DNA of 52,303 bases from an uncultured Candidatus Micrarchaeota archaeon. GTDB taxonomy: Archaea; Micrarchaeota; Micrarchaeia; Anstonellales; Anstonellaceae. A program made the translations under genes and the position numbers. The DNA is taken from assembly GCA_903923795.1 (NCBI GenBank), contig CAIXYX010000139.1, positions 1 through 52,303 of the forward strand. The letters run 5' to 3'. How positions within the stretch are numbered: position 1 is the stretch's first letter; every line of letters starts with the position of its first letter. Of this stretch, positions 1-31,300 are shown piece by piece. The notes below the pieces were generated by a model. It worked only from the letters and a program-made list of their open reading frames with translations. It was not told where the DNA came from and searched no databases.

Positions 1-1
1 C

Positions 2-1806: not shown

Positions 1807-1819
1807 AAACACACCTGTT

Positions 1820-4053: not shown

Positions 4054-4073
4054 GATAGAGTTCTTCGCGCGAC

Positions 4074-7905: not shown

Positions 7906-8213
7906 GGATTGGATAGAAATGAAAGGGAATAAGAAACAACGCCAAGAAATATTCGGCTATGCTATTTGTCGCACAGCTTGTGCGACTTTTGCATCTGTGC
8001 GACAGCAGAACAGATATTGGTGAATGATTTCATCATATGAAAGAGAAAAAAAAGAACAATTTCATATGGCATAATAAACACCCCTGAGGCAGAATGCGCG
8101 TGTTATGACGTGAAATTCGAGGGTGAGGAAAATAGCGGGGATTGATTTCGGGACAAAAAATGATAGTTTAAAATGATTAGCAATTCTGTGATGCAAACGG
8201 ATGAGGGATAAAT

Positions 8214-8444: not shown

Positions 8445-8501
8445 ACTCTCTCTTTGACGTAAGATTTCTCTTTCCCCAAAATGCGCGATTTTGATGAAAA
8501 C

Positions 8502-11237
8502 TCAGCGGCGCTCCCCGAATTCTCGCATGAATCTCTCGTATTCCATCGACTCACTGTCGGTGATGGACGGCCTTCTGCTTCCGACGAGCTGCATCACTTC
8601 CTCCGTCGAGAGGATTGGTTTCTCTTTGCTTATGTGCAGGCGCACGAGGCGAGTTTTCACTTCCTGCGCGACTGACACGAGGTCGGCGCCGGAGAAGCCG
8701 GGCGTCGCTTGGGCGAGGCGGCCGAAGTCGAGTTTCGGCAATAGCGGCGAGAGGGCCTTCTTCAATATCTCCTCGCGGCTCGCAGCATCTGGCGGCGGGA
8801 TATAGAGAATCTTGTCAAAACGGCCCGGGCGCAATAGCGCGGCATCCATCAGAGAGGGCTTGTTCGTGGCGCCGATGATTATGACATTCTTGAGCTCTTT
8901 GAGACCATCCATCTCCTGCAAGAGTTGAGTGAGTATAGGCGAGGAATAACCAGTGCGCGAGGGCGTCAAACTCTCGATTTCGTCGAAGAATATGAGCGCG
9001 GGCGTCTGCTCGCGCGCGCGGTTGAATGTCTCGCGCAGACTCTCTATGGCTGAATCAGAGCCGCCCTTTAGCAAATCTGCGCCGGAGAGCGAGAGGAATG
9101 TTGCGTTGAGCTGGTGAGATGCGGCGCGCACTATCATCGTCTTGCCGCAGCCGGGCGGTCCGAAGAGGAGAAGGCCGCGAATCGGTTTGAGCTGGTATTC
9201 GGCCATGAGTTCTGGGTGAAGAAGAGGAAGCTCGACTGCTTCATGCAATGCTTTTCTAACGTCGCCCAAGCCCACGACATCGTCCCATTTGACTTCGGCA
9301 AGATTAACCTCGGGCGCCTCCTCCTCCACGCGTCTTTCGAAGTCGAGGCGGAATTTCTCATATTCTGCCAAATGCGAGATGTGTGTCGAGGGCTTGAGGT
9401 ATTTTAGCACGGCCAGGAGATTTTTCTGCGAGAGCGCGATGATTTGGTTCTTCGCGGCCGCCTCGCGCGCAGTCTGCCGAATTGCCTCAGTCATGACGTT
9501 GGCCAAGTCCGCGCCGGAGTATCGCTCGGTCATGGAAGCAATCTTCTTGAAGTCGACATCGCCGCCGAGCGGCACGTCTTTGACATGCGAGCGCAATATC
9601 TGCTCGCGGCTGGCCAAGTCCGGCAGAGGCATGTAGATGACTTTGTCAAATCTTCCCGGTCGCAATATGGCGGCATCCAATTTGTTCGGCGCGTTCGTCG
9701 CGCCCATGACGATGACATGCTTTGTGCCAGTCGTCGGCACGCTATCCATCTCCAAAAGGAGCTGGTTCAGCGCAGTGTAATGGGCCGAATTCTCCTCGGA
9801 CATGGAGGAGCGGCTTCGCGCGATGGAGTCTATCTCGTCGAAGAATAGGATACAGGGCGCGTTCTTTCGCGCCGTGGCGAAAAGCTCGGCGATGTTCTTC
9901 TCGGTCTCGCCGAACCATTTCGAGGTGAGGTCAGAGCATTTCACGTAGTAGAAGCCAAGATTCATCTCTTTGGCCAGAGCTTTCATTATGAAAGTCTTGC
10001 CCGTGCCCGGAGGTCCGAAGAGGAGGATGCCGTTTGGCGGCTTGATGCCATATGTGACGGCGAGCTTCTTGTTCGAGAGCGGAGTGACGATGGCTTCGCG
10101 CAATTCGCGCTTGACGCTCTCATATCCGCCAACCTGCGCCAATGACTCCGGCCCGCCGGATGCGGTGGCGAGGTCCTCCACGCCAAGAAATCCGAATTTC
10201 TTTGTCTTCTCCTTGTGCCTCTCGATGCGCTCGCGCGCGATGTCGAGGTGGCCAGCTTCCATCAGGTAGAGAAGGATGAGCGTGAAGGCAGTGTAAATCA
10301 GCATCTCGTAGGGGAATGGAATATTGTACATAGATGCTATTGCGAAATGGGCGAGAGGGATGATGACGATGACCGCACCTGCCATGAGCTGGCGGTGCAC
10401 GCCCTTCACCACGCCGGGGATGTAACCGATGAGGAAGAGGGTGCCGGCCCACGCCAAGAGTTGAAGCAGAGCCGCATCCTCGACCAATAATTTGTAGCTG
10501 TTGTTGGCCACCTGCACGAGAGCCGGATTCACCATGTGGATTGTGTCGGCGCTGATGAGGTTGCCCATTGCGGAAATGGCCGCGGACGGCAAGGCCGCCA
10601 CATCGGGAATCGGCAGTCGGTCGCGCGCGAGCACAAGCTCTCCGCCCGAGGTGAGCGCCGGAGCGTAGATGCTGTTCGCAGGATCAAGGCTTTTGGTGAG
10701 CATGAATGCGGAATTTGGCGTGAGCCACAGAGTCGATAAGAGGAGGATGAAGAACACGGCAGGTAATGAGATGAAGATAGAGCGCTTCGAGCCGCCGTAC
10801 AATGCGCCCAGTGTGAGGCCGAACTGCACGAACCCTCCGAGGAAAATCAGCGGGAATGGGGCGAATGGCGCGCAGATGATGATTTCGAGAAATGATATCA
10901 GATACCAGTCTTTGAAAGCTTTGAAGAGCGTGAGACTGATGATTAGAGTATACAGCCAGGCAAAGATGGGCGCCTGGTACGCGATGGCGGGAAAGGCGAG
11001 AAGAACGCCCAAGATGGTGCCGACAAACGGGTGCTCGGGCAATGCATATGCAAGGATTCCGCATGCGCCGGCGAGGATGAAGGTGAGCCAGACGGGATAG
11101 AAATAGAAGAGGTTGAGGAGAAAGAGTGCACCCAGGAAAATGAGGAGGGCGGGCCATAATGCGTCGTTCTCCTGCAATGTTGCCTGCAGTGCTTTGAGCC
11201 TCGTGCCGCTTAGACTGGCCGGGGGTGCAGACGCCAT
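8502..11237 (-). CDS. Membrane-anchored double AAA+ ATPase (Cdc48/VCP-like D1+D2 fused to an N-terminal polytopic membrane domain)
   Basis: Two AAA modules: GILLFGPPGTGKT...ILFFDEID and GLLLFGPPGCGKT...LIFFDEIE. The first ~370 aa are almost entirely hydrophobic helices. The start is set at ATG 11237 because the ORF-track extension runs into tRNA-Arg. Confidence 0.85.
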   Translation of the reverse strand: MASAPPASLSGTRLKALQATLQENDALWPALLIFLGALFLLNLFYFYPVWLTFILAGACGILAYALPEHPFVGTILGVLLAFPAIAYQAPIFAWLYTLIISLTLFKAFKDWYLISFLEIIICAPFAPFPLIFLGGFVQFGLTLGALYGGSKRSIFISLPAVFFILLLSTLWLTPNSAFMLTKSLDPANSIYAPALTSGGELVLARDRLPIPDVAALPSAAISAMGNLISADTIHMVNPALVQVANNSYKLLVEDAALLQLLAWAGTLFLIGYIPGVVKGVHRQLMAGAVIVIIPLAHFAIASMYNIPFPYEMLIYTAFTLILLYLMEAGHLDIARERIERHKEKTKKFGFLGVEDLATASGGPESLAQVGGYESVKRELREAIVTPLSNKKLAVTYGIKPPNGILLFGPPGTGKTFIMKALAKEMNLGFYYVKCSDLTSKWFGETEKNIAELFATARKNAPCILFFDEIDSIARSRSSMSEENSAHYTALNQLLLEMDSVPTTGTKHVIVMGATNAPNKLDAAILRPGRFDKVIYMPLPDLASREQILRSHVKDVPLGGDVDFKKIASMTERYSGADLANVMTEAIRQTAREAAAKNQIIALSQKNLLAVLKYLKPSTHISHLAEYEKFRLDFERRVEEEAPEVNLAEVKWDDVVGLGDVRKALHEAVELPLLHPELMAEYQLKPIRGLLLFGPPGCGKTMIVRAASHQLNATFLSLSGADLLKGGSDSAIESLRETFNRAREQTPALIFFDEIESLTPSRTGYSSPILTQLLQEMDGLKELKNVIIIGATNKPSLMDAALLRPGRFDKILYIPPPDAASREEILKKALSPLLPKLDFGRLAQATPGFSGADLVSVAQEVKTRLVRLHISKEKPILSTEEVMQLVGSRRPSITDSESMEYERFMREFGERR

Positions 11238-11278
11238 AGGAGCGAAAAGGCATGTATTGTTTTTAAAACGAGAATAAC

Positions 11279-11352
11279 GGGCTCGGCAGGATTTGAACCC
11301 ACGACCTGCTGGTCCGAAGCCAGCCGCTCTATCCAAACTGAGCTACGAGCCC
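11279..11352 (-). tRNA. tRNA-Arg (anticodon TCG)
   Basis: The minus strand reads GGGCTCG TA GCTC AGTTTGGATA GAGC G GCTGG CTTCGGA CCAGC AGGTC GTGGG TTCAAAT CCTGC CGAGCCC. This gives a full cloverleaf with no encoded CCA. Confidence 0.9.
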
Positions 11353-11403
11353 GTAATATTATAATTACAGTAGCGGCGGTTTTATTCCTATAGGGGTCCG
11401 TCG

Positions 11404-12606
11404 CTATTTTTTCTGTCTCTTCTTCACCTGCGCTTTCAAATCCTGCAGCACGTTCATGTAATTTATGAACGACTCAAATGGAGATTCGTACGGCGAGAAA
11501 TAGTTGTGCACGTCCTGGTCGGAGAGGGATTTGGTGCAGCAGTAATAGAGATGGTCGGAGTTCTGCAGATGCCGCCACGTGCGCAGCAAATCAGGGTCGT
11601 TGAGTGCTTTCACCGGCGCCTCGAGGCTCGTCAATTCGCTAAAGGCCGCGCGTTGCATGTCATTGCCAAGCCACGCAGAGGTGTCGCGCTCGTTGTCGGC
11701 CCAGCTTATCACAGATGGCGCAGCCACCTCGCCCTTTGGCTCTACAGTAGTCGCGATGTCGGTCGGCGTGGCGAAAGACAAGTGATTATATTTCGAGATT
11801 TCGCCGGGCAGCTCTTTTAGAAAACTGAATATGCCGGTGTCCTCCCAGTGGTGCTCGCCGAAAGTCTCGTAATCCATGAAAAGATTCACGCAGTCCCCCT
11901 GCAAGTCAGAGAGCCATTTGGCGTATTTCGGCGCCGTGAGGGGGTATTCGTTCCAGCTTTTCTGCGAGAATCGGTAGCCTATGTCGTCCGAGAGTTTGTA
12001 ATGGCGCAAGAGTGCGCGGATGTTCGAGCAGCCCTGCACAGAATAGGCGTATGTCGGCGAGCGCCAGCCCAGCATCTGGTCAAGCCCCTCGGCCATGATG
12101 CCCTTGTATCCCATCGACTCGGCCCAATGCGCTATGTCGTTCGAGAACATGGCCTCGGTGTTTCGGAACACTGACGGCTTGGCGCAGAATGGGGCGATGG
12201 CGGCCTGGTGCAATTTCACCTGCTCGGTGAATTCGGTCTTCTCGGTGAAGAGGGATGAGAGCGAATGGTAGTAAGTCTCGGAGAGGAATTCGACGCGCCC
12301 CGTGCGTCCGAGAGCTGCAAAAGATTCCGCCACTTCGGGCATGTAGAGGCGCGCCTGCTCAAGAAATACGCCGGTGATGGAGAAGCTGACTTTCATCTCG
12401 GGATGTTTTTCCAGGAGTTCAAGCAAGAGGCGGTTGGCTGGAAGATAGCATTTGCTCGCCACTTTCGCCATGATTTGCCGATTCAGGTCGTGGTTGAAAT
12501 AGCGCTGGAACAACTCATCGCCGCCGCCCGCCGCACCGGATTCGAACACCGAGAATGGGGCGAGGCGCATCGGCTGATGGACCTGGAAATAAAAGCAGAC
12601 TTTCAT
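11404..12606 (-). CDS. Glycoside hydrolase family 57 (alpha-amylase / amylopullulanase-like)
   Basis: N-terminus VCFYFQVHQPMRL, KCYLPANRLLLELL and SFSITGVFLEQ match GH57 conserved regions. Confidence 0.85.
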   Translation of the reverse strand: MKVCFYFQVHQPMRLAPFSVFESGAAGGGDELFQRYFNHDLNRQIMAKVASKCYLPANRLLLELLEKHPEMKVSFSITGVFLEQARLYMPEVAESFAALGRTGRVEFLSETYYHSLSSLFTEKTEFTEQVKLHQAAIAPFCAKPSVFRNTEAMFSNDIAHWAESMGYKGIMAEGLDQMLGWRSPTYAYSVQGCSNIRALLRHYKLSDDIGYRFSQKSWNEYPLTAPKYAKWLSDLQGDCVNLFMDYETFGEHHWEDTGIFSFLKELPGEISKYNHLSFATPTDIATTVEPKGEVAAPSVISWADNERDTSAWLGNDMQRAAFSELTSLEAPVKALNDPDLLRTWRHLQNSDHLYYCCTKSLSDQDVHNYFSPYESPFESFINYMNVLQDLKAQVKKRQKK

Positions 12607-12618
12607 CGCTAAACCTCG

Positions 12619-13818
12619 TCAGATTTTTTTATAAGCGAGCATCGCTTCAGTATAGACATCCTCGGTCTCCTTCGCGCATTTCTCCCATGTCAGTTTCTTC
12701 AAATCGTCCGGGCCCATGCTCACCATGGTATCGCGCAATGGCGCGTAATCAAGCACAGCCAGTATCTTGCCGGCCATGCCCTGTATGTCCCAGAAATCGA
12801 CCTTGAGCGCGGACTTGACAACTTCGCCGACGCCCGAAGTCTTGGAGATTATGATGGGCGTGCCGGATGCCATGGCCTCGAGCGCAGTTATTCCGAACGG
12901 CTCGGATGTGGAGGGCATGACATAGACATCGGCCGCCGAATAGATGCGCTTCTGGTCCTCGTCGGGGAGGAAACCCAAAAAGCGCACATGCTCTGACAAG
13001 CCCAGTTCGAGGGAGAGCGAGATGAGCAACGGGAGAAGCTCGCCGCTCCCCGCCACGAAGAAGATGACATCAGACCGTTTGTCGAGCACTTTCTTCGCCG
13101 CATGCAGAAATTGCACCGGGCCCTTTTGCTCGGTGAGCCTCCCTAAGAAAAGGACAACATGCTTTCCATCAGTCTGCACGCTGAGTTTTGGTTTCGGTTC
13201 GGCGGCTTGATGAATACCGGGATATTTGCCGGCATCCACGCCGTTGTACACCACGCGTATTTTCGAGCTGTTCGCGCCCAAATGAGAAACAAGCTGGTCT
13301 CGCGTGCGCGCCGACACGGCGATGATGAGATTGGCGTCTTCTGCCGCCTGCCTCTCGATGCGCACTATGGAGTCCCAAGGCGTCGAGGTGCGGTCGAATT
13401 CTGTCGAATGAAATGTCTGCACAAGAGGCCGACGGATGAGGCTGCGCGCCTTCTCGCCCCCAGGCGCGGTGAGCCAGTCATGGCAGTGGATGACGTCATA
13501 GGGGATTTTGGCGTGCTCATCCCCGACCATTTTGGCGGCCTGCAGGTTGTACACCTCGACGGCCTTAATCAGCCCCTCGCCATAGGTGGCCAGTTTGCCT
13601 TTTTTGTTGAAAGAGAAATACGGCTGCAGGACGGATGGGGAGGTCTCGATGAGGCGGATGGATGCGTGCGGGCTCGAGAGGGTTTTTCCGCTCGACGGCA
13701 GATAGAAGTCGATTTTGTGCCCCATGTTTGCGAGGCGTTGCGTTAGCTCGAAGCAGTGGACGCCCAATCCCCCCGAGATGAATGGCGGGAATTCCCAGCC
13801 CAGCATGGCTATGCGCAT
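12619..13818 (-). CDS. Glycogen synthase-like GT-B glycosyltransferase
   Basis: MRIAMLGWEFPPFISGGLGVH N-terminus. C-terminal E-x7-E region is PSTSEPFGITALEAMASG. It lies 12 nt upstream of the GH57 gene on the same strand. Confidence 0.8.
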   Translation of the reverse strand: MRIAMLGWEFPPFISGGLGVHCFELTQRLANMGHKIDFYLPSSGKTLSSPHASIRLIETSPSVLQPYFSFNKKGKLATYGEGLIKAVEVYNLQAAKMVGDEHAKIPYDVIHCHDWLTAPGGEKARSLIRRPLVQTFHSTEFDRTSTPWDSIVRIERQAAEDANLIIAVSARTRDQLVSHLGANSSKIRVVYNGVDAGKYPGIHQAAEPKPKLSVQTDGKHVVLFLGRLTEQKGPVQFLHAAKKVLDKRSDVIFFVAGSGELLPLLISLSLELGLSEHVRFLGFLPDEDQKRIYSAADVYVMPSTSEPFGITALEAMASGTPIIISKTSGVGEVVKSALKVDFWDIQGMAGKILAVLDYAPLRDTMVSMGPDDLKKLTWEKCAKETEDVYTEAMLAYKKI

Positions 13819-17861: not shown

Positions 17862-17870
17862 ATTTATAAA
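17862..17870 (+). promoter_or_regulatory. TATA box candidate for the pilus-like operon
   Basis: ATTTATAAA lies about 50 nt before ATG 17919, leaving a short leader that carries a GGAGGGG SD (17907-17913). Confidence 0.4.
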
Positions 17871-17918
17871 TCTCACAAGATTAGCACGGGCCATACCCGA
17901 AAAGATGGAGGGGTTTTG

Positions 17919-18299
17919 ATGTCACGTTGGATGGTTTTCCCTATTTTGGCGCTTATCTTGGCTGTCTCGCTCACGCCCGTAGCCTTCGCGCAGGAGGTGA
18001 ACAACACCACCATCAATGCGTCCGGTGATAGCAGCAGCGTGACATACGAGACGAACCCGCTCTCTGACAAGAATGGCAAGATTTGTGTGTTCATAACAGA
18101 CTGGGTGCTGCGCGCGGTGTTCATGGTCGTGCTGCTCGTCTTCATCTGCGGCGTGGCCATCATCTCGGGCGCGGCATTCCCCGAATGGAGAAACTACGGC
18201 TCCAAGATGATCTTGGGCTCGCTCGGCGCGGTCGTGCTGTATATAATAGGCATCGCGGCGCTCAAATTCCTCATGGGCATGAGCCTGTGCGGGCTTTAG
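17919..18299 (+). CDS. Small secreted two-helix membrane protein, VirB2/TrbC/CedA1-like pilin candidate
   Basis: Signal peptide MSRWMVFPILALILAVSLTPVAFA|QE. A ~35-aa Asn/Ser/Thr-rich segment follows, then two hydrophobic helices joined by the short loop PEWRNYGSK. The ORF-track 5' extension overlaps the NYN gene. Confidence 0.6.
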   Translation: MSRWMVFPILALILAVSLTPVAFAQEVNNTTINASGDSSSVTYETNPLSDKNGKICVFITDWVLRAVFMVVLLVFICGVAIISGAAFPEWRNYGSKMILGSLGAVVLYIIGIAALKFLMGMSLCGL

Positions 18300-18311
18300 G
18301 GGGGATGGGGT

Positions 18312-18500
18312 ATGGCGGCGGCATTGGGCGGTTTGATTGACAGCCTCGACATGCTCACCAACATATTGCTTCTCATAGTGTTGGCGGTCTCGGTGGCGAT
18401 GTACGCGTACCCCGACCCGAGCGTGCGGCACAACGGGCTGGTGGCCTTTTTGGTCACTCTCCTCGCGGCCGCGCTCACCAACATCAAGATTCCGGTGTGA
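18312..18500 (+). CDS. 62-aa two-TM hairpin protein (CedA2/VirB3-like candidate)
   Basis: Two hydrophobic helices are separated by PDPSVRHNG. The gene starts 12 nt after the previous gene, and its stop overlaps the next start (GTGA). Confidence 0.5.
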   Translation: MAAALGGLIDSLDMLTNILLLIVLAVSVAMYAYPDPSVRHNGLVAFLVTLLAAALTNIKIPV

Positions 18501-21115
18501 GCATGGGCGAGGGCCCGGTCGACAGCCCCATGCTGGAAGCGAGAGAAGAAAAAAAGAAGTATTTCACCTTGTTCGGTTTTGTTTTCGCCCTCTTTATTTT
18601 CAGCCTTTTCATGATTACGCCGGCCCACGCCCTCTCCCCGGGGAAATACAGCGATTATGTCTGGGCCTCGGACTACCATCCTCCGGCCGCGCCCGCCAAT
18701 ATGAACCTCAACTGCAGCTTCTTCCTCCCCGACGATCCGGTGTGCGCGGACATAAACGCGCTCGACAACGAGAGCCGCGATGCGGTGCTGCTCGCGGCGA
18801 TAGGCAGGACAAGCCCGGAAGAATACCAGGACTGGGTGAGATATTGGAACGGCCAGCTCCCCATCAAGGATTATTACGACAATCTCTCCGCCATAAACGA
18901 GACGGCTGATGGCGCATACGGGGAGAACAATTCGCTGCGCGACATGTGGTTCCGCCTCATCGACTTCTACCCGGCGGTCTATGACCAGCGGGACGGCTAT
19001 TACTATCTCTCGGACCAGACGCTCGTATTGAGTCCGTTCCATGTCAATTTCGTGGTACCGAATTCGATGGAGGGGGATTGGTGTGCGCAGAGCTATGACA
19101 TCAAGGGCTATGATGTCGAGCTGCGAAAGAGCATCGGGAATTTCTCCACAACAGGCAGCATCCTGCCCGTCTCGCAGCTCATGGCCCCGGGCGAGAAGGC
19201 CAACCTCACCCTCACGATGTCGGCCACAGGCGCATACAGCTACAACCTCTCGGCCTCGCGAAACGCCAGCTGCGGAAATTGCACGCAGGAATGCGTGTTC
19301 AACGCCACCCGATCATCGGCAGACACGCTCACCCTGAGCCATGAATACCCAATCAAGAGATTCCCCGACACATTCGAATACAACAACACCCTCTCGGTGC
19401 CGAAAACCGGATTCGCGCAAGGCTTGGTGAGCCTGCGCCTGCCGGCCGATTTCCTGTATTACCAGTTCAGCGTGAAAGGCTACACATACACGGTGAGCCG
19501 GCATGAGCTTCAGCTGCAGAGCTATGGAGGAGTCTATCCTCTACTGCGCCTCGCCCTCATACCATCGCCATCGCAGAGCGGCACGCTGCACATAACATCG
19601 AGCAGCCAGAACGATGACAACATCACATACTGGGCTGACCTGCATTACAAGCTGCCGGTGTCCGCGCCCGACATAGGGGAGACGGACTGCGCATTCACGC
19701 TCGTCACGCCATTCGGCACGAAAACGGTTGAGAGGGCGTGCACCACGGCCCGGGCCGAGAGCTCGATAAAACTCGAGGTGCTGCGCGTGGAGAACGGCAT
19801 TGGCACGATACAGGCGTCGGTGCATGACCAGCTCGGAAACCCGCTCGAGGGCAGCGTCGTGCAGTTCACATCCGGCGGGCTCGTGCTGAACAAGACTACA
19901 GACGCGAACGGCATCGCGCTCGCCCAATTGCCGCAGGGGCAGTCCACCAGCAGTGTCGAGGGCGCAGTGGTGGATTCCGAGAATGCGTCAGGCGCCAAAG
20001 CAATCATATTTCTCGCGGGAAAGTCAGGCACCACGGGCAAGGGGGCCTCGTTCCTCTCGGCCGTCGTTGGGGCAGCCCCCATACTTTTAATTGTATTGCT
20101 TGTTAGCTCATCTATGATGTGGCTGCTGCGCAAGCGTTCCTCCGCCTGGCTTGTGTTACTCTTATGCCTCGCCCTATTGCCAGCGATGGCTTGGGGGCAG
20201 GATGCGGGGGCGAACAACACCACCCAGATAACACAGGACTCGAGCGGAGGCGTGCTCGACGTGCAGGCCACCCTCGACGCCTGCCGCGGATATGATTTCT
20301 CGAACGCGGTGCGCCATTTCGGCGAATGCGCAGAGGCTTACCAGCTCTCGAACGAGTTCTCCTCCATGCGCCGCACAGCGACAAAACTCATCGAGAACAT
20401 CGGACCGCTTGTGGTGGCCACTCCGGACATCACGGCATACAAGCAGCCCTACTCCGACATGGTGCGCATCTCCCTCGCGCTTTTTCGTGTGGCATGGGCG
20501 TTCAACTCCCTCTATCTGCTGCTCAACATATTCAACCCCAACCGCAGAAACGAGGCGCTCAAGCAATACATCTGGCTGATTGTGTTCGTCATATTCGCAT
20601 ACTTCTCATTCACCCTCATCTCCGGCGCAGTGTCGGCTGTGAACAACGTGGCGGAGTGGGTGGCGGGCAAGGATGCTGCGGCCAGCCTCACACAGGCCAC
20701 GCTGTCGGCTGAATTCGTTTCCGAGAATTACGAGATGCTCAAACTGGTGCTGCCGTTCCTCTCGGTGACATACCTTGTGCTGCTCGCGAGAAACATAACG
20801 GTCATCGCCATGATATTGTTCTTCCCCTTCTCGCTCCTCCTCTTCTTCACATCAGCCACCAAGGGTTTTGGCCGCGCCGCGCTCACGGTCACATTCGCGG
20901 CACTTGGCCTCGGAGTGGTCAATGCCATACTGCTGCTCATATACAACATACTTGTCACCACTGCTGCCGACCCCACATTGTCCGGCAGCTTCGCGGCCAC
21001 GTTCTTCTCGGCCTCGTTTATCATATTCTTCGGATTCGTGAACCTGCTGGTGCTCGCAGTCGCATTCCTCTCCGGCATCGTCTTTATTGGACAGAGCCGC
21101 GGGGCGGAAGGTTGA
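18497..21115 (+). CDS. Large envelope protein: ~500-aa ectodomain, TM hairpin, then a C-terminal polytopic domain (VirB6/TrbL/CedA-like candidate)
   Basis: 872-aa ORF with N-terminal TM FTLFGFVFALFIFSLFMI. It has a CarboxypepD_reg-like beta segment (VHDQLGNPLEGSVVQFTSGGLVLNKTTDANGIALAQL), a TM hairpin around RKRSS, and 5-6 further TMs in the last ~270 aa. Confidence 0.75.
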   Translation: MSMGEGPVDSPMLEAREEKKKYFTLFGFVFALFIFSLFMITPAHALSPGKYSDYVWASDYHPPAAPANMNLNCSFFLPDDPVCADINALDNESRDAVLLAAIGRTSPEEYQDWVRYWNGQLPIKDYYDNLSAINETADGAYGENNSLRDMWFRLIDFYPAVYDQRDGYYYLSDQTLVLSPFHVNFVVPNSMEGDWCAQSYDIKGYDVELRKSIGNFSTTGSILPVSQLMAPGEKANLTLTMSATGAYSYNLSASRNASCGNCTQECVFNATRSSADTLTLSHEYPIKRFPDTFEYNNTLSVPKTGFAQGLVSLRLPADFLYYQFSVKGYTYTVSRHELQLQSYGGVYPLLRLALIPSPSQSGTLHITSSSQNDDNITYWADLHYKLPVSAPDIGETDCAFTLVTPFGTKTVERACTTARAESSIKLEVLRVENGIGTIQASVHDQLGNPLEGSVVQFTSGGLVLNKTTDANGIALAQLPQGQSTSSVEGAVVDSENASGAKAIIFLAGKSGTTGKGASFLSAVVGAAPILLIVLLVSSSMMWLLRKRSSAWLVLLLCLALLPAMAWGQDAGANNTTQITQDSSGGVLDVQATLDACRGYDFSNAVRHFGECAEAYQLSNEFSSMRRTATKLIENIGPLVVATPDITAYKQPYSDMVRISLALFRVAWAFNSLYLLLNIFNPNRRNEALKQYIWLIVFVIFAYFSFTLISGAVSAVNNVAEWVAGKDAAASLTQATLSAEFVSENYEMLKLVLPFLSVTYLVLLARNITVIAMILFFPFSLLLFFTSATKGFGRAALTVTFAALGLGVVNAILLLIYNILVTTAADPTLSGSFAATFFSASFIIFFGFVNLLVLAVAFLSGIVFIGQSRGAEG

Positions 21116-21126
21116 GGTAATAAGCC

Positions 21127-24100
21127 ATGAGCGGATACCGCACCATCCCCACCAAGGACACGTTCGATGTCGACGAGCGACTGGGCGGCCTAATCACCGT
21201 GCGCCAGCTCGCTTTCCTCATCATCACCCTCGCCCTCACCTACCTCACCTTCGCCGTAGCTTCCCAAGTGCTCTCCGGCCCGGACGCCATCATGCCCACC
21301 GTGGGCGTGTTCTTCGTCTGCATGCTCGTGACGTTCGGGGGCGTGGACAGATGGTTCTACACGCGCCTGCGCTATTACCTGTTCTCGAACGCATCCTCGC
21401 TCGAGCGCAATCCGGCGCTTTTGCGCAACATCAGGACTGTTGAAGAGGACAAAATCGTCACGCTCGACGGCCGCGCCATGGCACTCTTACGCGTCACACC
21501 CATCAACTTCCCCCTCCTCTCCGACGAGGCCAAAGAGGGCAGGGTGGGCGCGTTCGAGATGTATCTGCGCCAATTGGTCTACCCCATCGTCCACTTGGTG
21601 CAGTCCGAGCCCATCGATGTCGAGGAATACGCCGACACTGTGCTGCGCAAGGCGAAGTCCGCGAAAGGCATGGGCATCGGGGGGGCGGAAGAGTACGCCG
21701 AGGAGCACGTGCGCTTTTTGCGCGAATTTTTGCGCTCGAACCGCTCGCGCGCCAAGAATCATTATGTCGTGCTGCAGGTGCAGGACCCCAGATACAAGGC
21801 GGGAAGATCCGGCATCGAGCCGAGCTTTGGCGACAAAATGATGCGCTCCGCGCAGGCCCTGCTCACAGAGGTGCAGCCATCCAGCCTCTTGGCGGGCGGG
21901 CCGCTGATGGTCAAGCCCAATAATTACGCCATGCTCGATTTGGCGACGGGCCGAATCCTCTTCAAAGACCCCGGGCGCATGCCCTCCACCCCGCCTGCGC
22001 GCTCGAAACAGATGGGCCGCATATTGCAGTTCGAGAGCAAGGTGGCCATGCTGCGCTGGGCGCGCACGGAGAGAAGGAACTACTACTACGGCGCAGTCGA
22101 CCCCGACATCGAATTGAAGAAGGAGTTCATGGCCATGCCCCTGCGCGAGCGCGAGATGGAATTCTCGCTCGATGAGAGGCGGCGAAATGTGCAGCTGTCG
22201 GCTGGCAAGACAAGATGGGCTTATGATGAATTGGAGAAGCACATCTCGGTGCTCACCGAAAAGCTCGAAGCAACAGGCCTGCGCGTGCGCCGCTTGCGCG
22301 GCGAGGAATTGTTCACCGGCCGGCACATGGTGATGGCACAGGCTCATTCGGTGAAAGTGAATCCTCATCATCTTGTGGTGGACAACATATACTACAAAGT
22401 GGTCTATGCCACTGGCTACCCGTATCAGGTGAATTTGGGCTGGCTCACCAACATCGTGGACGGGCGCGAAGACTATGATTTGTCGATGTACATCTACCCC
22501 GTGAGCATACCCGAGGCGCTCTCCACTTTCCGCGGGGCCATACTCAAATTGTCGACAGAGAAGAAGGCGCGCGCAGACTTCCTTGATCCGGAGACAGAAC
22601 AACATCTCGATGATGTGAAGAGCTTCTTCACGCAAATAGTTTCTGGCAAGGAGAGGTATTTCCTTGCCTCGCTCTATATCACGTGCAAGGCGACGTCGAA
22701 AAAGAGCCTCGACACAGTTGTGGAGAAGTGCAAATCTGACCTGGCCGGCGCATCCATAGATTACGGCACTGCGGACTATGACATGTCGCGTGCTGTGTAC
22801 ACCACGCGCCTAACAGGCTCGGACCTGCTGGCAAAGAAGCGCGAATTCCCGTCAAGCTCGCTCGCCGCCACATTCCCGCACATCTCGTCCTCGCTCGAGA
22901 TAGACCCAAGCGGCATATTCTTCGGATTCGACTGGATGGGCGCGCCCATAATCCTCGATTTGACAAGGCTGCCCAACCAGCACATAGCCATCACCGGTGA
23001 GTCCGGCTCGGGCAAATCATATTTCGCCAAAAGCATCATCCCCCGCTACCTGCTCAACGGGTATCGGGTGTTCGTCACAGACCCCGACGGAGAATACGCG
23101 GATTTGACGCGCCATTTCGGCGGAGTGGTCTCGACCGTCGGCCCCAAATACAACACGGCTATAAACCCCTTCGACCTCTCGGGCCGCGACATCAATGACA
23201 AGATACGCTCGCTTATGGGCTTCATGGCGATTGTGGCGGGCAGCCTCACCAAATACCAGGAAGGCCTCTTGAGCGACGCGCTGGCAGAATTATATGAGGA
23301 CAACAGAGGTAAGAGCCGCCAGATAGTGATGAGCGATTTCGCGGCTGTGCTGAACCGCCGCCTCGCGAAAACAAGAGATGACCAGACGCGCCATGATTTG
23401 CAATTCCTGCTGATTTCGATTCGCCCGTTTTTGAAAGGCAACTTGTACGGCTTTTTGGACAGGCCCACGACCGTGAAGCTCGATTCGCGCCTGCAGGTGT
23501 TCGATTTGCGCGAGTATCAGAATGACAAGACGCTGCGCGACCTCTTCAACTACATCATCTTCGACTTCATCACGCACCAGCTCACCTCGAGCCATGAGCG
23601 CAAGGCATTATTCATGGACGAGGGCTGGACCATGGTGAACTACCCCTCGACAGAGGATTATGTGCGCTATATCATCAAGGACAGCCGCAAATACAATGTG
23701 TCGTTCGTGTTCCTCACGCAGGAATTGGAGGACATGCTCCAGTCGCAGGCCGGCCGCTCGATTTTGTACAACACGGCCACGCAGTTCATATTCCACCAGA
23801 AAGAGAGCGCCATGGCGCTGATGAAGACCACGCTCAACTTGACGCCGCCGGAATACGAGAAATTGATTGCGTGCGGAAAGGGCGAAGGGCTGATGATTTC
23901 CGATAGCATCCGCCTGCTTTTCCGCGTGCGCACGAACCAGGCTGAGCACGAGCTCATCTCCACCGACCCCAATGAGAAGAGGAGGATTGAGGAGGACTTA
24001 TCGTCCGGCGCAGGCTCGGCGTCATCCGGAACGAAACGGACAGGGAGTATGGAAGTGCGCGAATCCGCGCTCATGGAGCCTGCCCCCGCCCCGCCTGTTC

Positions 24101-24426
24101 TGCCGAATCCCGACTTGGAGGCCAGCCGCGCATATGTGTCTCCGGCCCAGAGCGCGGGCGAGCAGCAGACAGAACCTGATGATGCGCCATCAGAGCCGCC
24201 CCATGTGATTTTGCCGAACGAGCCCACAGTCAAATTGGATGAGGACAACCGCATCTTCAAAAACACCGCCCCGCCACCGAAACCATACACACCAGGCATT
24301 CCGCTGGCTGTTTCCAAGGGGATGGTGAGCCCGAAAGAGGCGTTAAGACTGCTGCAGCAGGCGGACAAGAGCGGCAAGACGAGGGGAAAGAAGACGGCGG
24401 GCGGAAAGGGGAAGAAAAGGAAGTAA
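21127..24426 (+). CDS. VirB4/TrbE/CedB-family secretion ATPase with N-terminal VirB3-like TM hairpin and a disordered Pro/Lys-rich tail
   Basis: Walker A ITGESGSGKSYF, Walker B ALFMDEGW and FVFLTQELEDM. The N-terminal TM hairpin is VRQLAFLIITLALTYLTF...VGVFFVCMLVTFGGV. A GAGGT SD lies 9 nt upstream. Confidence 0.85.
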   Translation: MSGYRTIPTKDTFDVDERLGGLITVRQLAFLIITLALTYLTFAVASQVLSGPDAIMPTVGVFFVCMLVTFGGVDRWFYTRLRYYLFSNASSLERNPALLRNIRTVEEDKIVTLDGRAMALLRVTPINFPLLSDEAKEGRVGAFEMYLRQLVYPIVHLVQSEPIDVEEYADTVLRKAKSAKGMGIGGAEEYAEEHVRFLREFLRSNRSRAKNHYVVLQVQDPRYKAGRSGIEPSFGDKMMRSAQALLTEVQPSSLLAGGPLMVKPNNYAMLDLATGRILFKDPGRMPSTPPARSKQMGRILQFESKVAMLRWARTERRNYYYGAVDPDIELKKEFMAMPLREREMEFSLDERRRNVQLSAGKTRWAYDELEKHISVLTEKLEATGLRVRRLRGEELFTGRHMVMAQAHSVKVNPHHLVVDNIYYKVVYATGYPYQVNLGWLTNIVDGREDYDLSMYIYPVSIPEALSTFRGAILKLSTEKKARADFLDPETEQHLDDVKSFFTQIVSGKERYFLASLYITCKATSKKSLDTVVEKCKSDLAGASIDYGTADYDMSRAVYTTRLTGSDLLAKKREFPSSSLAATFPHISSSLEIDPSGIFFGFDWMGAPIILDLTRLPNQHIAITGESGSGKSYFAKSIIPRYLLNGYRVFVTDPDGEYADLTRHFGGVVSTVGPKYNTAINPFDLSGRDINDKIRSLMGFMAIVAGSLTKYQEGLLSDALAELYEDNRGKSRQIVMSDFAAVLNRRLAKTRDDQTRHDLQFLLISIRPFLKGNLYGFLDRPTTVKLDSRLQVFDLREYQNDKTLRDLFNYIIFDFITHQLTSSHERKALFMDEGWTMVNYPSTEDYVRYIIKDSRKYNVSFVFLTQELEDMLQSQAGRSILYNTATQFIFHQKESAMALMKTTLNLTPPEYEKLIACGKGEGLMISDSIRLLFRVRTNQAEHELISTDPNEKRRIEEDLSSGAGSASSGTKRTGSMEVRESALMEPAPAPPVLPNPDLEASRAYVSPAQSAGEQQTEPDDAPSEPPHVILPNEPTVKLDEDNRIFKNTAPPPKPYTPGIPLAVSKGMVSPKEALRLLQQADKSGKTRGKKTAGGKGKKRK

Positions 24427-24460: not shown

Positions 24461-25288
24461 ATGACTAAACAAATCCAGAGCGCGAAGAATTGGTTCATTG
24501 CCACTACCATAGCTCTAAGCTTAATCATCAATTCCATGCGGGCCAAAGAACCGCTCGTTGAACAGAAATTTCGGCCCGTGAGTCTCGATTCGCTAAAAAG
24601 CAAAGTTCTTATCATAGAGGAGAACGACCGTGTCTATACTGTTCGGGATGAATTGGCGAAAAGCCTCCCCGCGCTCGGCTCGATTGGCTATGGGAGAATG
24701 TATTTCGAGCTGCTCTCGCCAAAAGCGCAGAATTTGGTCGATGATTATCTCGCGTCCGGCTCCGATACAGTCCGGCCAGCGCTCAACACGGCCTTATATC
24801 TCGCGAGCCGCGAGAAAGAGGATGAGAAGAACGAGAAATCGCATTCTGCCGGCCGCCTGCTCGCAGCCGCAAAAGCCGTCCGTTGGTCTTTTCAGGGCAT
24901 TTACTTCGACACCACATCGCTCGGCGTGCCGGAGTATATCACGGTGCGTGACAGCATATATGCGCATGAGATATGGGAACAGTATGGCAAAGACTCGGTC
25001 CGCATAGTGCTGGATATCGGAGGCTTGCACGGGGCGGGCATCGAGGCGAATCTGGCCAAATTGGGAATCGAGGCCAAGCGCCTCTTCACATGGGACTATT
25101 CCTTGAGCGCCGAGCGCAGCATTGGCTGTCGGAATGCGAATTATCTCTCGCAGGCATATTTTGAGAATTATGTTGACCCGGTTGTTGACGCTAATCTCCC
25201 GCCGGGCTTGTATCAGACAGGGGATTTTGCGCATGTCAGCTATGTCTGGATAGTGCGAAGCAAAGGAAACGAGACTGGAGAAAAGTAA
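24461..25288 (+). CDS. Hypothetical protein with N-terminal TM anchor
   Basis: 275-aa ORF 34 nt after the ATPase gene. TM segment WFIATTIALSLIINS. Its 5' part is AT-richer than its neighbours. Confidence 0.55.
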   Translation: MTKQIQSAKNWFIATTIALSLIINSMRAKEPLVEQKFRPVSLDSLKSKVLIIEENDRVYTVRDELAKSLPALGSIGYGRMYFELLSPKAQNLVDDYLASGSDTVRPALNTALYLASREKEDEKNEKSHSAGRLLAAAKAVRWSFQGIYFDTTSLGVPEYITVRDSIYAHEIWEQYGKDSVRIVLDIGGLHGAGIEANLAKLGIEAKRLFTWDYSLSAERSIGCRNANYLSQAYFENYVDPVVDANLPPGLYQTGDFAHVSYVWIVRSKGNETGEK

Positions 25289-28204: not shown

Positions 28205-28340
28205 GGTCTGCTAGTGGATGGCGGGATTTATTATTATGATTATCCGGCCGCGCTCCCCGAGGCGAAAAAACGATGATACCGGGCGTGAATGTGCGGCTGG
28301 AACAACATTTTAGTATGGGCAATTCGCCCACACTATAGCC

Positions 28341-28350
28341 TTTTATATTA
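28341..28350 (+). promoter_or_regulatory. TATA box candidate for the giant protease gene (leaderless)
   Basis: TTTTATATTA is centred about 24 nt before ATG 28370. Confidence 0.45.
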
Positions 28351-28369
28351 CAAAACAGACGTATATACC

Positions 28370-31300
28370 ATGTCTGTTTCCAAAGATTCGCGCTTTGGCC
28401 ATCTACGTTTAGGAATAGTCGTTTTGCTCGGCCTCCTGCTCCTCGCACCAGTCATACTCGCCGCAGATGCACCCGCTCTCGCCGCATCGAATCCAGCCGG
28501 CGCCGCATCCGGACTTGCGGGCCGGATTGCCACCCAAACACAGGCAGGCCAGAACAATTCGAGCGGCCAGAATATTTCGGGCGGATTCGATTATTATGTC
28601 ATCAGATACTCCGAGCCGCCCGGAACCGCCCAAATCACCCAAATCCAAAACGCGGGCTTCGACATCATCGGCTACTCGAGCGGATTTCGATATATCGTTC
28701 GCAAAACCGCAGACGGCTCGAAACTCATATCAGCGCCAAAAATCCCGAATGCCGCCATAGAGAGATTCGCCTCTGCAGGCCTCGCGCCGCAGCTGACGAA
28801 TTTCACTGGCAAAAAGAACATCACCATACAATTCTTTCCAAGAGAGGATACGGCCGCCCTCTCGGCGAAAGTCCGCGCGATCGCCCCATCCGCACGCCCA
28901 ATCGACGTAGGCATGACGGCCGATGGCGTGAATCCGGACCAGGTCCGCCGAATCTCGGACACAAGCGGAATACAGTATATCGACGAAAACCTCCCGCTCG
29001 AAAAATTCGACAACCGCACCACGCAGATATTGGGCGCGAACCAGGTATGGGACAACCTCGGCTACACCGGAGCGGGAGTAGTGGTGGCGGTGGAGGACAC
29101 CGGCCTTGACACAGGAAACCTGTCCACCATCCACCAAGACCTGCGCGGGCGCGTGATAAATCTCACTGGGTATTGCAGCACAAATCTCAACGGCAGGGAC
29201 TATGAGGGCCATGGCACGCACGTGGCAGGCATAGCGGTTGGCAATGGCACGCTGAATCTCACAAACAAGGGCACTTCACCTGGGTCGCAACTGGTTTTTC
29301 AGGCACTCGGCTGCGCGCCGGGCGGAGGCGGGAGCACATCTACCGGCACGATAAGTCTTTTTAGATTAGCCAGTGGATTTGGCGCGCAGGTGCACACGAA
29401 TTCGTTTGGCAGCATTGTCGTCGGAAATCCGTATTACGGCACCACGGCCTCAAGCGTTGATGCGTACACCCGCAACGAGAACCCGAACATAACAATATTC
29501 TACGCCGCGGGCAACAGCGGACCTGACGCATTGTCAGTCACTCTCTCAAGCGTGGGGAAAAATATTGTGTCGGTCGGCAATGTGTATGGATACGGCGTGC
29601 CGTATTATCTCGATAACACTTCCAGCCACGGACCAGCCACAGACGGCAGGATCAAACCGGACTTGGTGGCTCCCGGAGACGGGATCTGGTCTACTTGCGT
29701 CGGCGGAGGATATTGCATGATGAGCGGGACTTCGATGGCCTCGCCCGCAGCCGCAGGTTCGGCTGCGCTGGTATATGATTATTTGGCGAGAAATCGGAGC
29801 TATTCAAGACCGAGCTCGGCGCTTGTGCGCTCGATCCTCATCGCAGGGGCAGAGCGGATCGGAACCCCGATCTACGGACCGATCCCGAACAACATAGTCG
29901 GGTTTGGCATGATCAATCTCACACGCTCGCTGGCGATCATGCGCGGATATCAGATGGATTACTCTGACTCGCAGTATCCGCTTGAGACCGGGCAGAGCGC
30001 AGCATTCTCATACACAGTCAACAATTCCAATATCCCGCTGCGTGTGGCCCTCGTCTGGACCGATCCGGCATGCACCGACGTGTACGGCACGTGCAATTCC
30101 ACGGCGCTCATAAATGATCTGGACCTCAAAGTGATAGGCCCGGATGGAAGCTGGCTGCTTGGAAACAACCAGACAGCGAATTCGACCACTGCAGATAGGA
30201 GAAATGTCATCGAGATGGCCGACATAGACTACCCGGCGCTTGGGACATACACAGTCAACGTGAGCGCGTATTCGGTCCCGTCCGGCAACCAGACATTCGC
30301 CCTGGCAGTCATTCGCGGAACTGGCCCGGGAGATTATGATAACGCAAACCGGACGATAATCCCGACATTTGACAATAGCCTGATCACGAACTTGACGTCC
30401 ACATCATTCGTCATGAACTGGTGGACCATCAATGTCGTATCGAACAGCTCGGTCAAATACAGGGCCATGCTGGTCAACCGCACGACTGGATATGTCTGCG
30501 CATTTACTGATTATCTTTATGCGACAAATTCGAGCATGGTGGGCATACACACCATACCCGTGACATCGCTCTCTCCGAACACTCTATACTATGTCACGAT
30601 AAAATCATGCTCTGCCTCCGGAGGCTGCAATGAGAGCACGCTGACACGTGACGGCCAGACGCTGGTTCTCACCACACAGGCGATTTCGGCCCCGTCAAAC
30701 AGCAATATCGCCTCGAGCCAGATAACTTATCAGAGCGCGCAGATAGGCTGGAATACCAACATCTCGGCGAACGCATCTGTCAAATACAAGGCGTCAGGAG
30801 ACGCGTCGTGGAGCTATGCAACAGATTCAGGCATGGCGAGCGCACACAACATCTCGCTTACGTCCCTCTTGGGCAGCACGACATACATATACACAGTCAA
30901 ATCATGCGTCGAGGGCGGCATGGCCAACACCTGCGGCTCGAATCCGCTCTGCACCGAGAGCGCGGAATCGAGTTTCACCACGCCCCCCGCGCCGGTCATC
31001 TACCCGAACCTCTCCTCCGTCTCGGCGAGCCAGATAACTTATCAGAGCGCGCAGGTGAATTGGGCGAGCGATGCGGCGGCGAACTCAACAGTCAAATACA
31101 AGCCATTAGCGGGCTCGGATTGGCTCTATGCTTACAATTCGAGCCTTGCGCTCGCGCACACAATGCAACTCTCCTCGCTTGCGGCAAACACCACATACTC
31201 ATACACGGTGAAATCATGCACAACATCTGGCGGATGCAATGAAAGTGATGAGCAGAATTTCACAACATCCCCACCGCCACCGCCAGTCCTCTCGCTCATC

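Follow-up and report, generated by a model that had tools for sequence, protein, structure and literature searches.

Here, we describe four same-strand genes, g1 to g4, that lie at positions 17919–24426 of a 52,303-nucleotide stretch of archaeal DNA (contig CAIXYX010000139.1 of assembly GCA_903923795.1), the whole of which we call the window. They form a conserved, intact, and chromosomally fixed set made up of a VirB2-like protein, a small hairpin, a fusion of an immunoglobulin (Ig)-like ectodomain to a VirB6-like domain, and a VirB3–VirB4 fusion. We consider it moderately probable that this set is a lineage-specific, domesticated, and minimal conjugation-type apparatus, that is, a type IV secretion system (T4SS) taken from the mating-pore module of integrated elements that circulate in related DPANN archaea. 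No published description was found in the full-text literature on DPANN VirB4, Micrarchaeota T4SS, DPANN Ced, or Anstonella/Burarchaeum, where the nearest items are giant nanohaloarchaeal proteins with VirB4/TraG domains (PMC10266531) and the T4SS of Patescibacteria, and the current annotation of the operon genes reads only “DUF87,” “Ig-like domain-containing,” or hypothetical.

A conserved, chromosomally fixed operon

All four predicted open reading frames (ORFs) were found as first read. A TATA-like box, TTTATAAA (17863–17870, +), which was read from the sequence and is predicted only, marks the putative operon promoter, and a Shine-Dalgarno-like GGAGGGG (17907–17913, +) stands 5 nt before the g1 ATG. 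The tightly packed genes follow in the order g1 (17919–18299, +), a predicted VirB2/TrbC-type pilin of 126 aa; g2 (18312–18500, +), a two-helix membrane hairpin of 62 aa without a signal peptide; g3 (18497–21115, +), an ectodomain/VirB6-like fusion of 872 aa when read from GTG; and g4 (21127–24426, +), a VirB4-class ATPase of 1099 aa. The 12-nt gap between g1 and g2 and the 11-nt gap between g3 and g4 are as given in the initial annotation. Its 4-nt GTGA overlap between g2 and g3 holds with the GTG start, but the public annotation (P0021) starts g3 at the ATG at 18503, which gives 870 aa and a 2-nt gap. A TTTATA[AT]A or TTTAAATA box lies 43–59 nt 5′ of g1 in all seven orthologous loci, a G-rich element resembling a Shine-Dalgarno sequence sits at the matching position in all seven inspected, and the reading frames are intact in every clade locus. 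The conserved TATA box and the tight spacing suggest that one promoter drives g1–g4 as a single transcript.

Homologues of g4 at 55–100% identity come only from metagenome-assembled genomes (MAGs). Where these are named, the label is Ca. Micrarchaeota, Micrarchaeia, or Anstonellaceae; the one exception, labelled Marsarchaeota, is partial and probably mis-binned. Vazquez-Campos et al. (PMC8561730) assigned one of the source genomes, the MAG LFW-29 (locus L004), to Ca. Anstonellaceae. The window is from a DPANN archaeon of the Micrarchaeota, probably in or near Anstonellales, and a euryarchaeal host, at which a euryarchaeal-type S-layer had first seemed to hint, is ruled out by the Micrarchaeota and Anstonellaceae labels on its close homologues.

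By tblastn, the g1-g2-g3-g4 order is kept in seven other species (the orthologous loci L002–L008; L010–L016 and L018–L097 are outgroup loci), whose clusters share a TatD/NYN/GT4/GH57/Cdc48/ABC neighbourhood with only local rearrangements. The window itself carries housekeeping genes: a pelota/eRF1-like protein, an S-layer protein, Cdc48, GH57, GT4, TatD, an ABC exporter, an NYN protein, and LeuRS, as well as TFB, RadA, a NUDIX protein, PGM, adenylosuccinate synthetase, two tRNAs, and RNase P RNA. Measured against the copy in the window, g4 and its flanks change in identity together, with Spearman coefficients of 0.94 for GT4, 0.90 for GH57, and 0.83 for TatD in a small sample (n=5–6), and at 57–79% across species the identity of g4 is comparable to that of the housekeeping neighbours. 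Genes 3′ of g4 vary in the orthologous loci (SerRS, PrsW, large beta-helix or LamG surface proteins, and unknowns); no mobile-element gene was found there.

Similarly, no integrase, relaxase, or type IV coupling protein (T4CP) was found among the scanned ORFs of at least 130 aa across the window, and no att-like direct repeats bracket the operon. A neighbourhood census gave g1, g2, and a fused g3 in 8/8 clade loci and an integrase, resolvase, or Cdc6-like gene in 0/8, with no relaxase or T4CP nearby either, and no clade member was found on viral contigs. GC is flat, at 0.55–0.61 in the operon against 0.53–0.63 elsewhere in the window. The absence of element genes and att repeats, the housekeeping neighbours, and the similar base composition were all claimed in the initial annotation, and its view of a host-owned, chromosomal machine is borne out by synteny, co-divergence, and the lack of a recombinase or Cdc6.

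Conserved synteny and the absence of recombinase and replication genes lead us to read the operon as domesticated. The hallmarks of an integrative and conjugative element (ICE) or conjugative plasmid, namely a recombinase, replication genes, relaxase, T4CP, att repeats, atypical composition, and a variable location, were not found. What was found is the profile of a domesticated system of the Ced/Ted kind: a chromosomal, vertically inherited set of VirB2-, VirB6-, and VirB4-like proteins with no element genes. It is important to remember that the missing relaxase and T4CP, which had first been offered as an argument in their own right, were indeed not found but are not diagnostic, because mobile relatives in the outgroup also lack recognisable ones.

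Relatives borne on integrated elements

In an exhaustive profile search, a tight clade scored above 1100 bits (at least 55% identity), and nothing else exceeded 515 bits. Among the next relatives is a protein of Ca. Burarchaeum australiense, and the gene order at its locus (L010) runs from a tyrosine integrase, through further genes, to an N6/N4 methyltransferase, TrbC (PF04956, 106 aa), T4SS_pilin (PF18895, 72 aa), a 545-aa gene, a 317-aa gene, VirB4, an Orc/Cdc6-like ATPase, and restriction-modification genes. The core of pilin, polytopic protein (about 300 aa or larger), and VirB4 recurs in 5/6 other outgroup loci, and 5/6 have serine resolvase, tyrosine integrase, Cdc6-like, TrmB, Bro-N, or Abi genes nearby. 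A metagenome scan with profile A7 added 80 loci; among the 41 outgroup loci of at least 14 kb, a census counted a pilin in 34, a VirB6-like gene in 36, a recombinase in 12, a Cdc6-like gene in 13, and a methyltransferase in 16. No recognisable T4CP or relaxase was found in any outgroup locus.

These Burarchaeum-type clusters, with the related metagenomic contigs, are homologous to g1–g4 and hold, in the same order, the pilin or pilins, an ectodomain protein, a VirB6-like protein, and a VirB3–VirB4 fusion. They differ in that the ectodomain and VirB6-like genes are unfused, integrase, resolvase, Cdc6-like, methyltransferase, and restriction-modification genes commonly adjoin, and VirB4 (for example, L010 8001–11156; P0058–P0076) is extended at the C-terminus by a further domain of about 160 aa that bears an invariant H...D...E-x-E-T-G pattern. 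The ExETG motif is present in 22/24 outgroup VirB4s and in 0/7 clade VirB4s. Pfam has no match for this domain; its best PDB match is Cas4 (4r5q), aligned on the catalytic motif at E 0.15, which at the level of motifs suggests a PD-(D/E)xK-like nuclease. Such a domain could provide a DNA-processing function for archaeal conjugative elements that have no relaxase. The outgroup locus L016 is laid out differently: within 1–13300, VirB4 is preceded, in this order, by a protein of over 2400 aa, an Ig/invasin-domain protein of 660 aa, and one of 813 aa with a pilin-like N-terminus, a layout that resembles the nanohaloarchaeal giant surface protein beside VirB4.

One could also take g1–g4 as the mating-pore module of a still-mobile or recently decayed ICE whose integrase and replication genes lie beyond the regions examined: the closest relatives sit among integrase, resolvase, Cdc6, and methyltransferase genes, and archaeal conjugative elements often have no recognisable relaxase. 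This explanation is nonetheless largely refuted, and we hold it to be highly improbable, given that the whole 52-kb window is housekeeping, that the neighbourhood is kept in seven other species with identities tracking the flanks, and that the repeats, GC, ORFs, and contigs described above bear no trace of an element. Domestication remains our preferred account, and on sequence grounds the operon apparently descends from a T4SS mating-pore module, of MPF-FATA type, carried by integrated elements of Micrarchaeota.

What the four proteins resemble

The hydropathy first described for the four products (signal peptide and two helices in g1, a hairpin in g2, a polytopic end in g3, and a transmembrane (TM) hairpin in g4) and the ATPase motifs were all recovered. 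The g4 protein carries Walker A GESGSGKS (624), Walker B LFMDEGW (828), and FLTQE. Among Pfam families, it matches P-loop_TraG at 89.8 bits (cutoff 25.8), DUF87 at 69.1 (23.2), and AAA_10 at 46.5 (27.5), with FtsK_SpoIIIE at only 25.5 bits over 42 residues round the P-loop. NCBIfam puts the VirB4 models first (CD1110, 1.4e-62; Mbov_0397 VirB4, 7e-61; TraC, 4.6e-43; VirB4_CagE, 3.3e-30), far ahead of CedB (2e-12), CedD, and the models of sister clades (HerA, 1.6e-5; VirD4-like, 2e-3). In the PDB, the g4 family profile finds the VirB4 ATPase domain 4AG5 at E 2.7e-32 and TrwK at 4e-5, and no HerA or FtsK structure passes. A HerA/FtsK identity is ruled out by the NCBIfam ranking together with the PDB search and, judged by its profiles, g4 is a true VirB4-class ATPase, as had been predicted.

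Placing g4 within that class requires some care. It falls below the cutoffs of the bacterial MPF-FATA equivalogs (CD1110, 212 bits vs. 325; Mbov_0397, 206 vs. 590), so on these scores it is related to them, yet not a member. Its best matches on bacterial plasmids are in Actinobacteria, Firmicutes, and Spiroplasma, which are MPF-FATA hosts, at 27% identity or less. It is also well below the Ced cutoffs (CedB, NF041017, 46.8 bits vs. 700; CedD, 43.7 vs. 600).

The protein can be divided into three parts. The first (21127–21396, +) is a PrgI/VirB3-like TM hairpin with TMs at residues 19–74. PrgI scores only E 0.004 and 18 bits on g4 itself, under its 27-bit cutoff, but it matches the N-terminus in 11/15 VirB4s of the lineage (best E 3.1e-8), and P0065 has a precomputed PrgI match. 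A VirB3/PrgI protein or domain was taken to be one that is small, has two TMs, serves as an anchor for VirB4, and matches PF12666 or PF05101, and this is what the lineage as a whole displays; the 11/15 therefore point to a VirB3 fused to VirB4, and the VirB3 equivalent is more likely this N-terminus than g2. Next is a TraC-like N-domain and P-loop ATPase (21397–23961, +), the VirB4/TraC-type body that the Pfam, NCBIfam, and PDB matches cover. The last part (23962–24426, +) is a low-complexity extension of about 154 aa with 14% proline, which replaces the nuclease-like domain of the outgroup. It has a conserved LPLA(V/L)(S/T)HGLV..KEAL.LL-type motif and a Lys/Arg-rich end, and Pfam finds no domain in it; a tail of this kind (about 120–165 aa) is present in all 15 clade members. 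We withdrew the polybasic end as a diagnostic of the clade, having found it in 5/7 clade but also in 9/24 outgroup VirB4s.

The 872-aa g3 protein has the polytopic end first described, but it is more than the plain VirB6 it was taken for. Hydropathy gives an N-terminal TM, a TM pair at 514–568, and about five C-terminal TMs. The N-terminal half (18497–20086, +) has a signal/anchor helix, a large beta-rich Ig-like ectodomain, and a TM anchor, and it holds 15 of the 18 NxS/T sequons of g3. The C-terminal half (20087–21115, +) consists of a former signal peptide retained as a TM, a Cys-containing loop, and a VirB6/CedA-like domain of about five TMs, the first hairpin of which is pilin-like. Big_1, at 3e-6 on the N-terminal half of g3, is the sole Pfam/NCBIfam match among g1, g2, and g3. 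In the AlphaFold2 model of g3, whose mean predicted local distance difference test (pLDDT) is 66.7, the ectodomain strands at 145–504 reach about 80–94, and a helical membrane domain spans 587–866; the top Foldseek matches of the ectodomain are Ig-repeat adhesins.

By HHalign, residues 47–528 match the Burarchaeum 545-aa protein (99.6%, E 5e-24), and residues 584–839 match the outgroup proteins of about 300 aa, the Burarchaeum 317-aa protein included (93–95%, E 2e-8). Wherever both halves were detected in an outgroup locus, they are distinct ORFs next to each other; in 8/8 clade loci they form a single ORF. At the junction, the C-terminal anchor of the one protein and the signal peptide of the other survive as a TM pair with a basic loop, LRKRSS, between them, which means that topology was preserved. 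From these alignments, g3 is best described as a gene fusion of an Ig-like ectodomain protein and a VirB6-like polytopic protein.

The VirB6 likeness of the second half has several strands. Its helices at 606–866 and its place directly 5′ of g4 give what one looks for in a polytopic channel protein, at least five TMs next to virB4. Foldseek with g3 aligns it over 286 columns to chain 8rtd_L of the R388 T4SS stalk/inner-membrane complex (prob 1.00, E 3.2e-3, TM(target) 0.36). That chain is most probably VirB6, going by chain length and by the composition of the entry, which holds TrwI/VirB6 (342 aa) and not VirB9, the other small components being below 268 residues (R388 component lengths and sequences were taken from NC_028464). 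The scans run gave no Pfam TrbL/VirB6 match for g3 or the VirB6-like family; the L012 orthologue has a precomputed “faint” TrbL_3 match. In addition, the N-terminal part of the VirB6-like family aligns with the pilin family (HHalign, 96.4%, E 1e-9), Pfam T4SS_pilin matches the N-terminus of outgroup VirB6-like members (E 1.8e-5 and 3e-3), and residues 645–713 of g3 on their own reach 10.8% in the same register. Beltran et al. (PMC9905601) reported the same homology between channel N-terminus and pilin for CedA/CedA1 and for VirB6/VirB2. When the pilin and VirB6-like families were compared by HHalign with TrwL, TrwM, and TrwI of R388 as single sequences, nothing came up, in a comparison that has no power here, as Pfam-positive outgroup pilins fail it too.

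For g1, a signal peptide (residues 1–24, AFA|QE) is followed by a variable linker with many N-glycosylation sequons and then by a conserved helix-loop-helix (54–120) with the loop AFPEWRNYGSK. This is the architecture of TrbC/VirB2, in which a signal peptide precedes a pair of hydrophobic helices with a short basic loop between them; P88, W90, R91, G94, C56, and C124 are invariant in the 22-member alignment. As had been foreseen for the small proteins, the AlphaFold2 model of g1 is a helical hairpin, with helices at 54–86, 88–93, and 95–120 and a mean pLDDT of 66.7. Compared with a 68-sequence archaeal TrbC/T4SS_pilin profile, seeded by Pfam-positive proteins and built from the outgroup loci, the g1 family scores 84.3% (HHalign, E 7e-6, 75 columns) over the whole mature hairpin, the negative controls (g2 and the g4 N-terminal TM hairpin) scoring 2.5%; a smaller profile of seven sequences gave 42%. 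Moreover, g1 is the first gene of its cluster, the place held in Burarchaeum by the PF04956 TrbC gene.

Other comparisons were empty. HHalign of g1 or g2 against single Burarchaeum pilins, and of g1 against g2 or g3, was not significant; PDB profile searches with the g1, g2, and g3 alignments gave nothing; and Foldseek had no significant match for the g1 monomer model, which includes the signal peptide and a disordered linker round a hairpin too simple for the method. In the Pfam/NCBIfam scans, g1 has no direct match to a T4SS family, and 1/22 members of its family matches at E 0.19. In the family searches first suggested, VirB4 and TraC families match g4, CedB is under its cutoff, and neither a TrbL/VirB6 Pfam match for g3 nor a TrbC/VirB2 one for g1 appeared. 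With moderate confidence, and from sequence comparison, we call g1 a divergent VirB2/TrbC-type pilin.

Two side observations concern its cysteines. The invariant C56 and C124 bracket the ends of the hairpin, and the “IC...CG[LW]” signature also occurs in the Pfam-positive TrbC-type pilins of Burarchaeum and L014. Bacterial VirB2/TrbC undergo head-to-tail cyclisation, and a putative C56–C124 disulfide staple could be a functional analogue of it.

The small g2 protein is kept in 8/8 clade loci at 56–71% identity over its whole length (58–82% in local tblastn segments), with a conserved AYP[DE]PSVRHNG loop. It stands where L010 and L014 have a second pilin paralogue (PF18895); 15/53 outgroup loci with pilin matches possess such a paralogue. 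No significant sequence link to pilins, VirB3, Pfam, or PDB entries was found for g2. It is probably not VirB3, to judge from these searches, and may be a second small pilin-like protein (a minor pilin), a CedA2-like partner, an assembly factor, or an accessory hairpin. The parts list of VirB2, VirB3, VirB6, and VirB4 in the initial annotation is thus sound for VirB4 and holds as remote matches for VirB2 (g1) and VirB6 (the C-terminal half of g3); VirB3, which had been sought in g2, is better placed at the N-terminus of g4.

Known systems, possible function, and neighbouring genes

Accounts of the Ced system are those of van Wolferen (2016) and Beltran (2023). Like g1–g4, the Ced of Sulfolobales and Desulfurococcales (CedA, CedA1, CedA2, CedB) is a host-owned set of four proteins: a VirB4-like ATPase, a polytopic channel with a pilin-like N-terminus, and two small proteins of two TMs each. 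It is unlike them in that CedA1 is unprocessed whereas g1 has a signal peptide, that g4 scores 46.8 bits on the CedB model vs. 212 on VirB4 CD1110, and that DNA import, demonstrated for Ced, is only proposed for g1–g4. The Ted system of Thermoproteales (TedC pilin, TedA VirB6-like, TedB VirB4-like; PMC9905601) is likewise chromosomal, host-owned, and minimal, with no relaxase or T4CP, and combines a VirB4-class ATPase and a polytopic VirB6-like protein with a two-helix-hairpin pilin whose signal peptide is cleavable. Beyond the VirB4 class, however, no sequence relationship to Ted was detected. Our genes sit side by side in one operon, they join VirB3 to VirB4 and VirB6 to a large Ig-like ectodomain, and neither HerA, Rad50, nor ParA is linked to them; they also belong to a DPANN phylum and apparently come from an element of MPF-FATA type. 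The Ced/Ted likeness first noted therefore stands for analogy and not for orthology (CedB, 46.8 bits vs. 700): by these comparisons, g1–g4 are analogous to both systems and orthologous to neither.

Among bacteria, Patescibacteria carry on the chromosome a T4SS of MPF-FATA descent that has VirB2-like pilins but no relaxase, and for S. epibionticum it is essential (PMC12102498). These systems of the candidate phyla radiation resemble g1–g4 in belonging to an ultrasmall-cell lineage, in being chromosomal, without a relaxase, and inferred to be co-opted away from conjugation, and in having an MPF-FATA-related VirB4 with PrgI/VirB3, VirB6, and VirB2-like pilins. They differ in being bacterial and phylum-wide, in including TrsD and often pilin arrays, and in that no VirB3–VirB4 fusions were found in them; g1–g4 are archaeal, have the fusion, and belong to a clade that looks narrow. 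The MPF-FATA systems of Firmicutes, Actinobacteria, and Tenericutes (CTn2 CD1110; pCF10 PrgJ/PrgI/PrgH) provide the best curated-model matches of g4 and a PrgI-like VirB3, and are of monoderm type, without VirB7/9/10. Identities of 27% or less and scores under the equivalog cutoffs set them apart, and the bacterial systems have no VirB2-type pilins and do have a T4CP, relaxase, and cell-wall hydrolases. Among domesticated T4SSs, what sets g1–g4 apart is the VirB6–ectodomain fusion, the VirB3–VirB4 fusion, the lost nuclease-like domain, and a visible mobile ancestor type.

How might such an apparatus work? By analogy with TedC/VirB2, g1 would be exported by Sec, cut at AFA|QE, and parked in the membrane as a two-helix hairpin. 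The g4 ATPase, held at the membrane by its fused VirB3-like hairpin, would dock on the VirB6-like C-terminal domain of g3 and, as in R388, Ced, and Ted, could extract g1 and perhaps g2 to form a conjugative-type pilus or short conduit. The Ig-like ectodomain on the channel protein, presumably heavily glycosylated, might reach across the S-layer and, as a stalk or adhesin, touch another cell. Pilus or conduit assembly with DNA translocation between cells is what we infer by analogy, and the substrate would most likely be DNA taken up for the cell's own benefit, in a Ced/Ted-like import and not in the self-transfer of an element. We favour this substrate because the recombinase and replication genes are gone, because a disordered basic tail now stands where the ancestral VirB4 had its nuclease-like domain, and because divergence of the cluster keeps pace with that of the genome. 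Should the outgroup domain serve to process DNA for export, a switch to import or to another cargo would, speculatively, be in keeping with its loss.

A second possibility, which we find somewhat unlikely, is that the operon is the host-interaction conduit of an episymbiont, one that docks on a host archaeon and moves host macromolecules (nucleic acids, lipids, proteins) or effectors, much as in Patescibacteria, whose epibiotic growth requires their T4SS. In favour of this are the DPANN identity of the organism, the fusion of the g3 channel to an adhesin-like Ig ectodomain, the giant surface proteins encoded downstream in the window, L003, and L006, and the relaxase-less T4SS of S. epibionticum (PMC12102498). 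Nanohaloarchaeal giant surface proteins, in addition, have VirB4/TraG domains for which an action on hosts has been proposed (PMC10266531). Scavenging is less compelling, however, in Anstonellales, which reportedly have near-complete biosynthesis of nucleotides, amino acids, and lipid precursors and a reduced dependence on hosts (PMC12892359; PMC8561730); no effector-like genes are linked to the operon, and the mechanism overlaps the one set out above, differing only in partner and cargo. Anstonellales are described as metabolically capable, less host-dependent, and shaped by horizontal gene transfer (PMC12892359), which favours DNA exchange over nutrient scavenging without deciding the matter.

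The operon might instead serve adhesion only, with VirB4 building a pilus of g1 (possibly g2) and displaying the g3 ectodomain for attachment or biofilm, and with no translocation at all. This would suit the heavily sequon-rich Ig-like ectodomain, the loss of the ancestral nuclease-like VirB4 domain, and a locus with no T4CP, relaxase, or nuclease partner. Still, the VirB6-like channel domain and the intact catalytic motifs of VirB4 are under strong constraint (g4, 57–79% identity), and archaea already use type IV pili for adhesion, a protein with a class III signal peptide being encoded at 43189–43704. Ced and Ted, the domesticated T4SS precedents, both translocate DNA (PMC9905601), and we regard an adhesion-only role as improbable.

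Our preferred account of a domesticated apparatus for exchange between cells must be weighed against several points. A recombinase lies within 7 kb in only 12/41 long outgroup loci, so that some outgroup copies may be immobile too, and the direction of domestication is plausible but short of proof. The likeness to VirB6 is a distant one (Foldseek E 3e-3, TM 0.36, no Pfam match), the pilin call for g1 comes from one 84% profile–profile match plus position and architecture, and g2 has no detectable homologue beyond the clade. The clade loci examined number eight, and the genome scan, which used very specific peptide patterns, found nine species.

More tentatively, and as something rather unlikely, conjugative mating-pore modules may have been captured and turned into host-owned conduits between cells independently in ultrasmall archaea (Micrarchaeota) and ultrasmall bacteria (Patescibacteria). 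The Micrarchaeota machine would then be a channel for DNA or other macromolecules from partner cells, the VirB6–Ig fusion an adhesin-stalk that spans the S-layer, and the swap of nuclease for basic tail a switch from export to import. If true, this would offer a mechanistic basis for the extensive gene gain by horizontal transfer reported for Anstonellales and a first candidate molecular identity for the “bridges” between DPANN archaea and their hosts.

To our knowledge, the only host-owned archaeal T4SS derivatives described are Ced and Ted, both from thermophilic Thermoproteota. The g1–g4 operon would be the third such archaeal system, an independent one in DPANN whose mobile ancestor type can still be observed and whose steps of domestication (loss of recombinase and Cdc6, fusion of ectodomain and VirB6, loss of the nuclease-like VirB4 domain) can be read. 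It would stand beside the essential chromosomal T4SS of Patescibacteria as its counterpart in archaea, and would be a concrete candidate for the means by which Micrarchaeota of expanding metabolism take up foreign DNA or make contact with partner cells.

Some neighbouring features deserve a record of their own. Directly 3′ of g4 is a 275-aa ORF (24461–25288, +) with its own AT-rich TATA-like stretch upstream; it has no Pfam or NCBIfam match and no counterpart in the orthologous loci, and it is probably outside the conserved system. In several genomes, giant surface proteins that may be adhesins are encoded a few kb 3′ of the operon, a linkage to the T4SS that could be coincidental. In the window this is a 2848-aa subtilase (28289–36835, +) with at least 12 FN3/PurAcPhosph_N repeats and a PEGA domain; elsewhere, beta-helix/NosD/LamG proteins of 1178 aa (L003 14674–18210, −) and 1888 aa (L006 10311–15977, −) are found. 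The class III (type IV pilin-like) signal peptide mentioned above belongs to a 171-aa protein on the reverse strand (43189–43704, −), and the genome therefore also has type IV filament components beside its T4SS-like operon, as do the Ced-bearing Sulfolobales with their Ups pili.

Finally, an archaeal RNase P RNA (Rfam RF00373, 97 bits) lies at 38536–38788 (+) in a lower-GC, ORF-poor stretch at about 38–41 kb. The longest Cdc48 ORF (8502–11336, −), which begins with TTG, overlaps the tRNA-Arg at 11277–11353 (−), and the true Cdc48 start is therefore further downstream.

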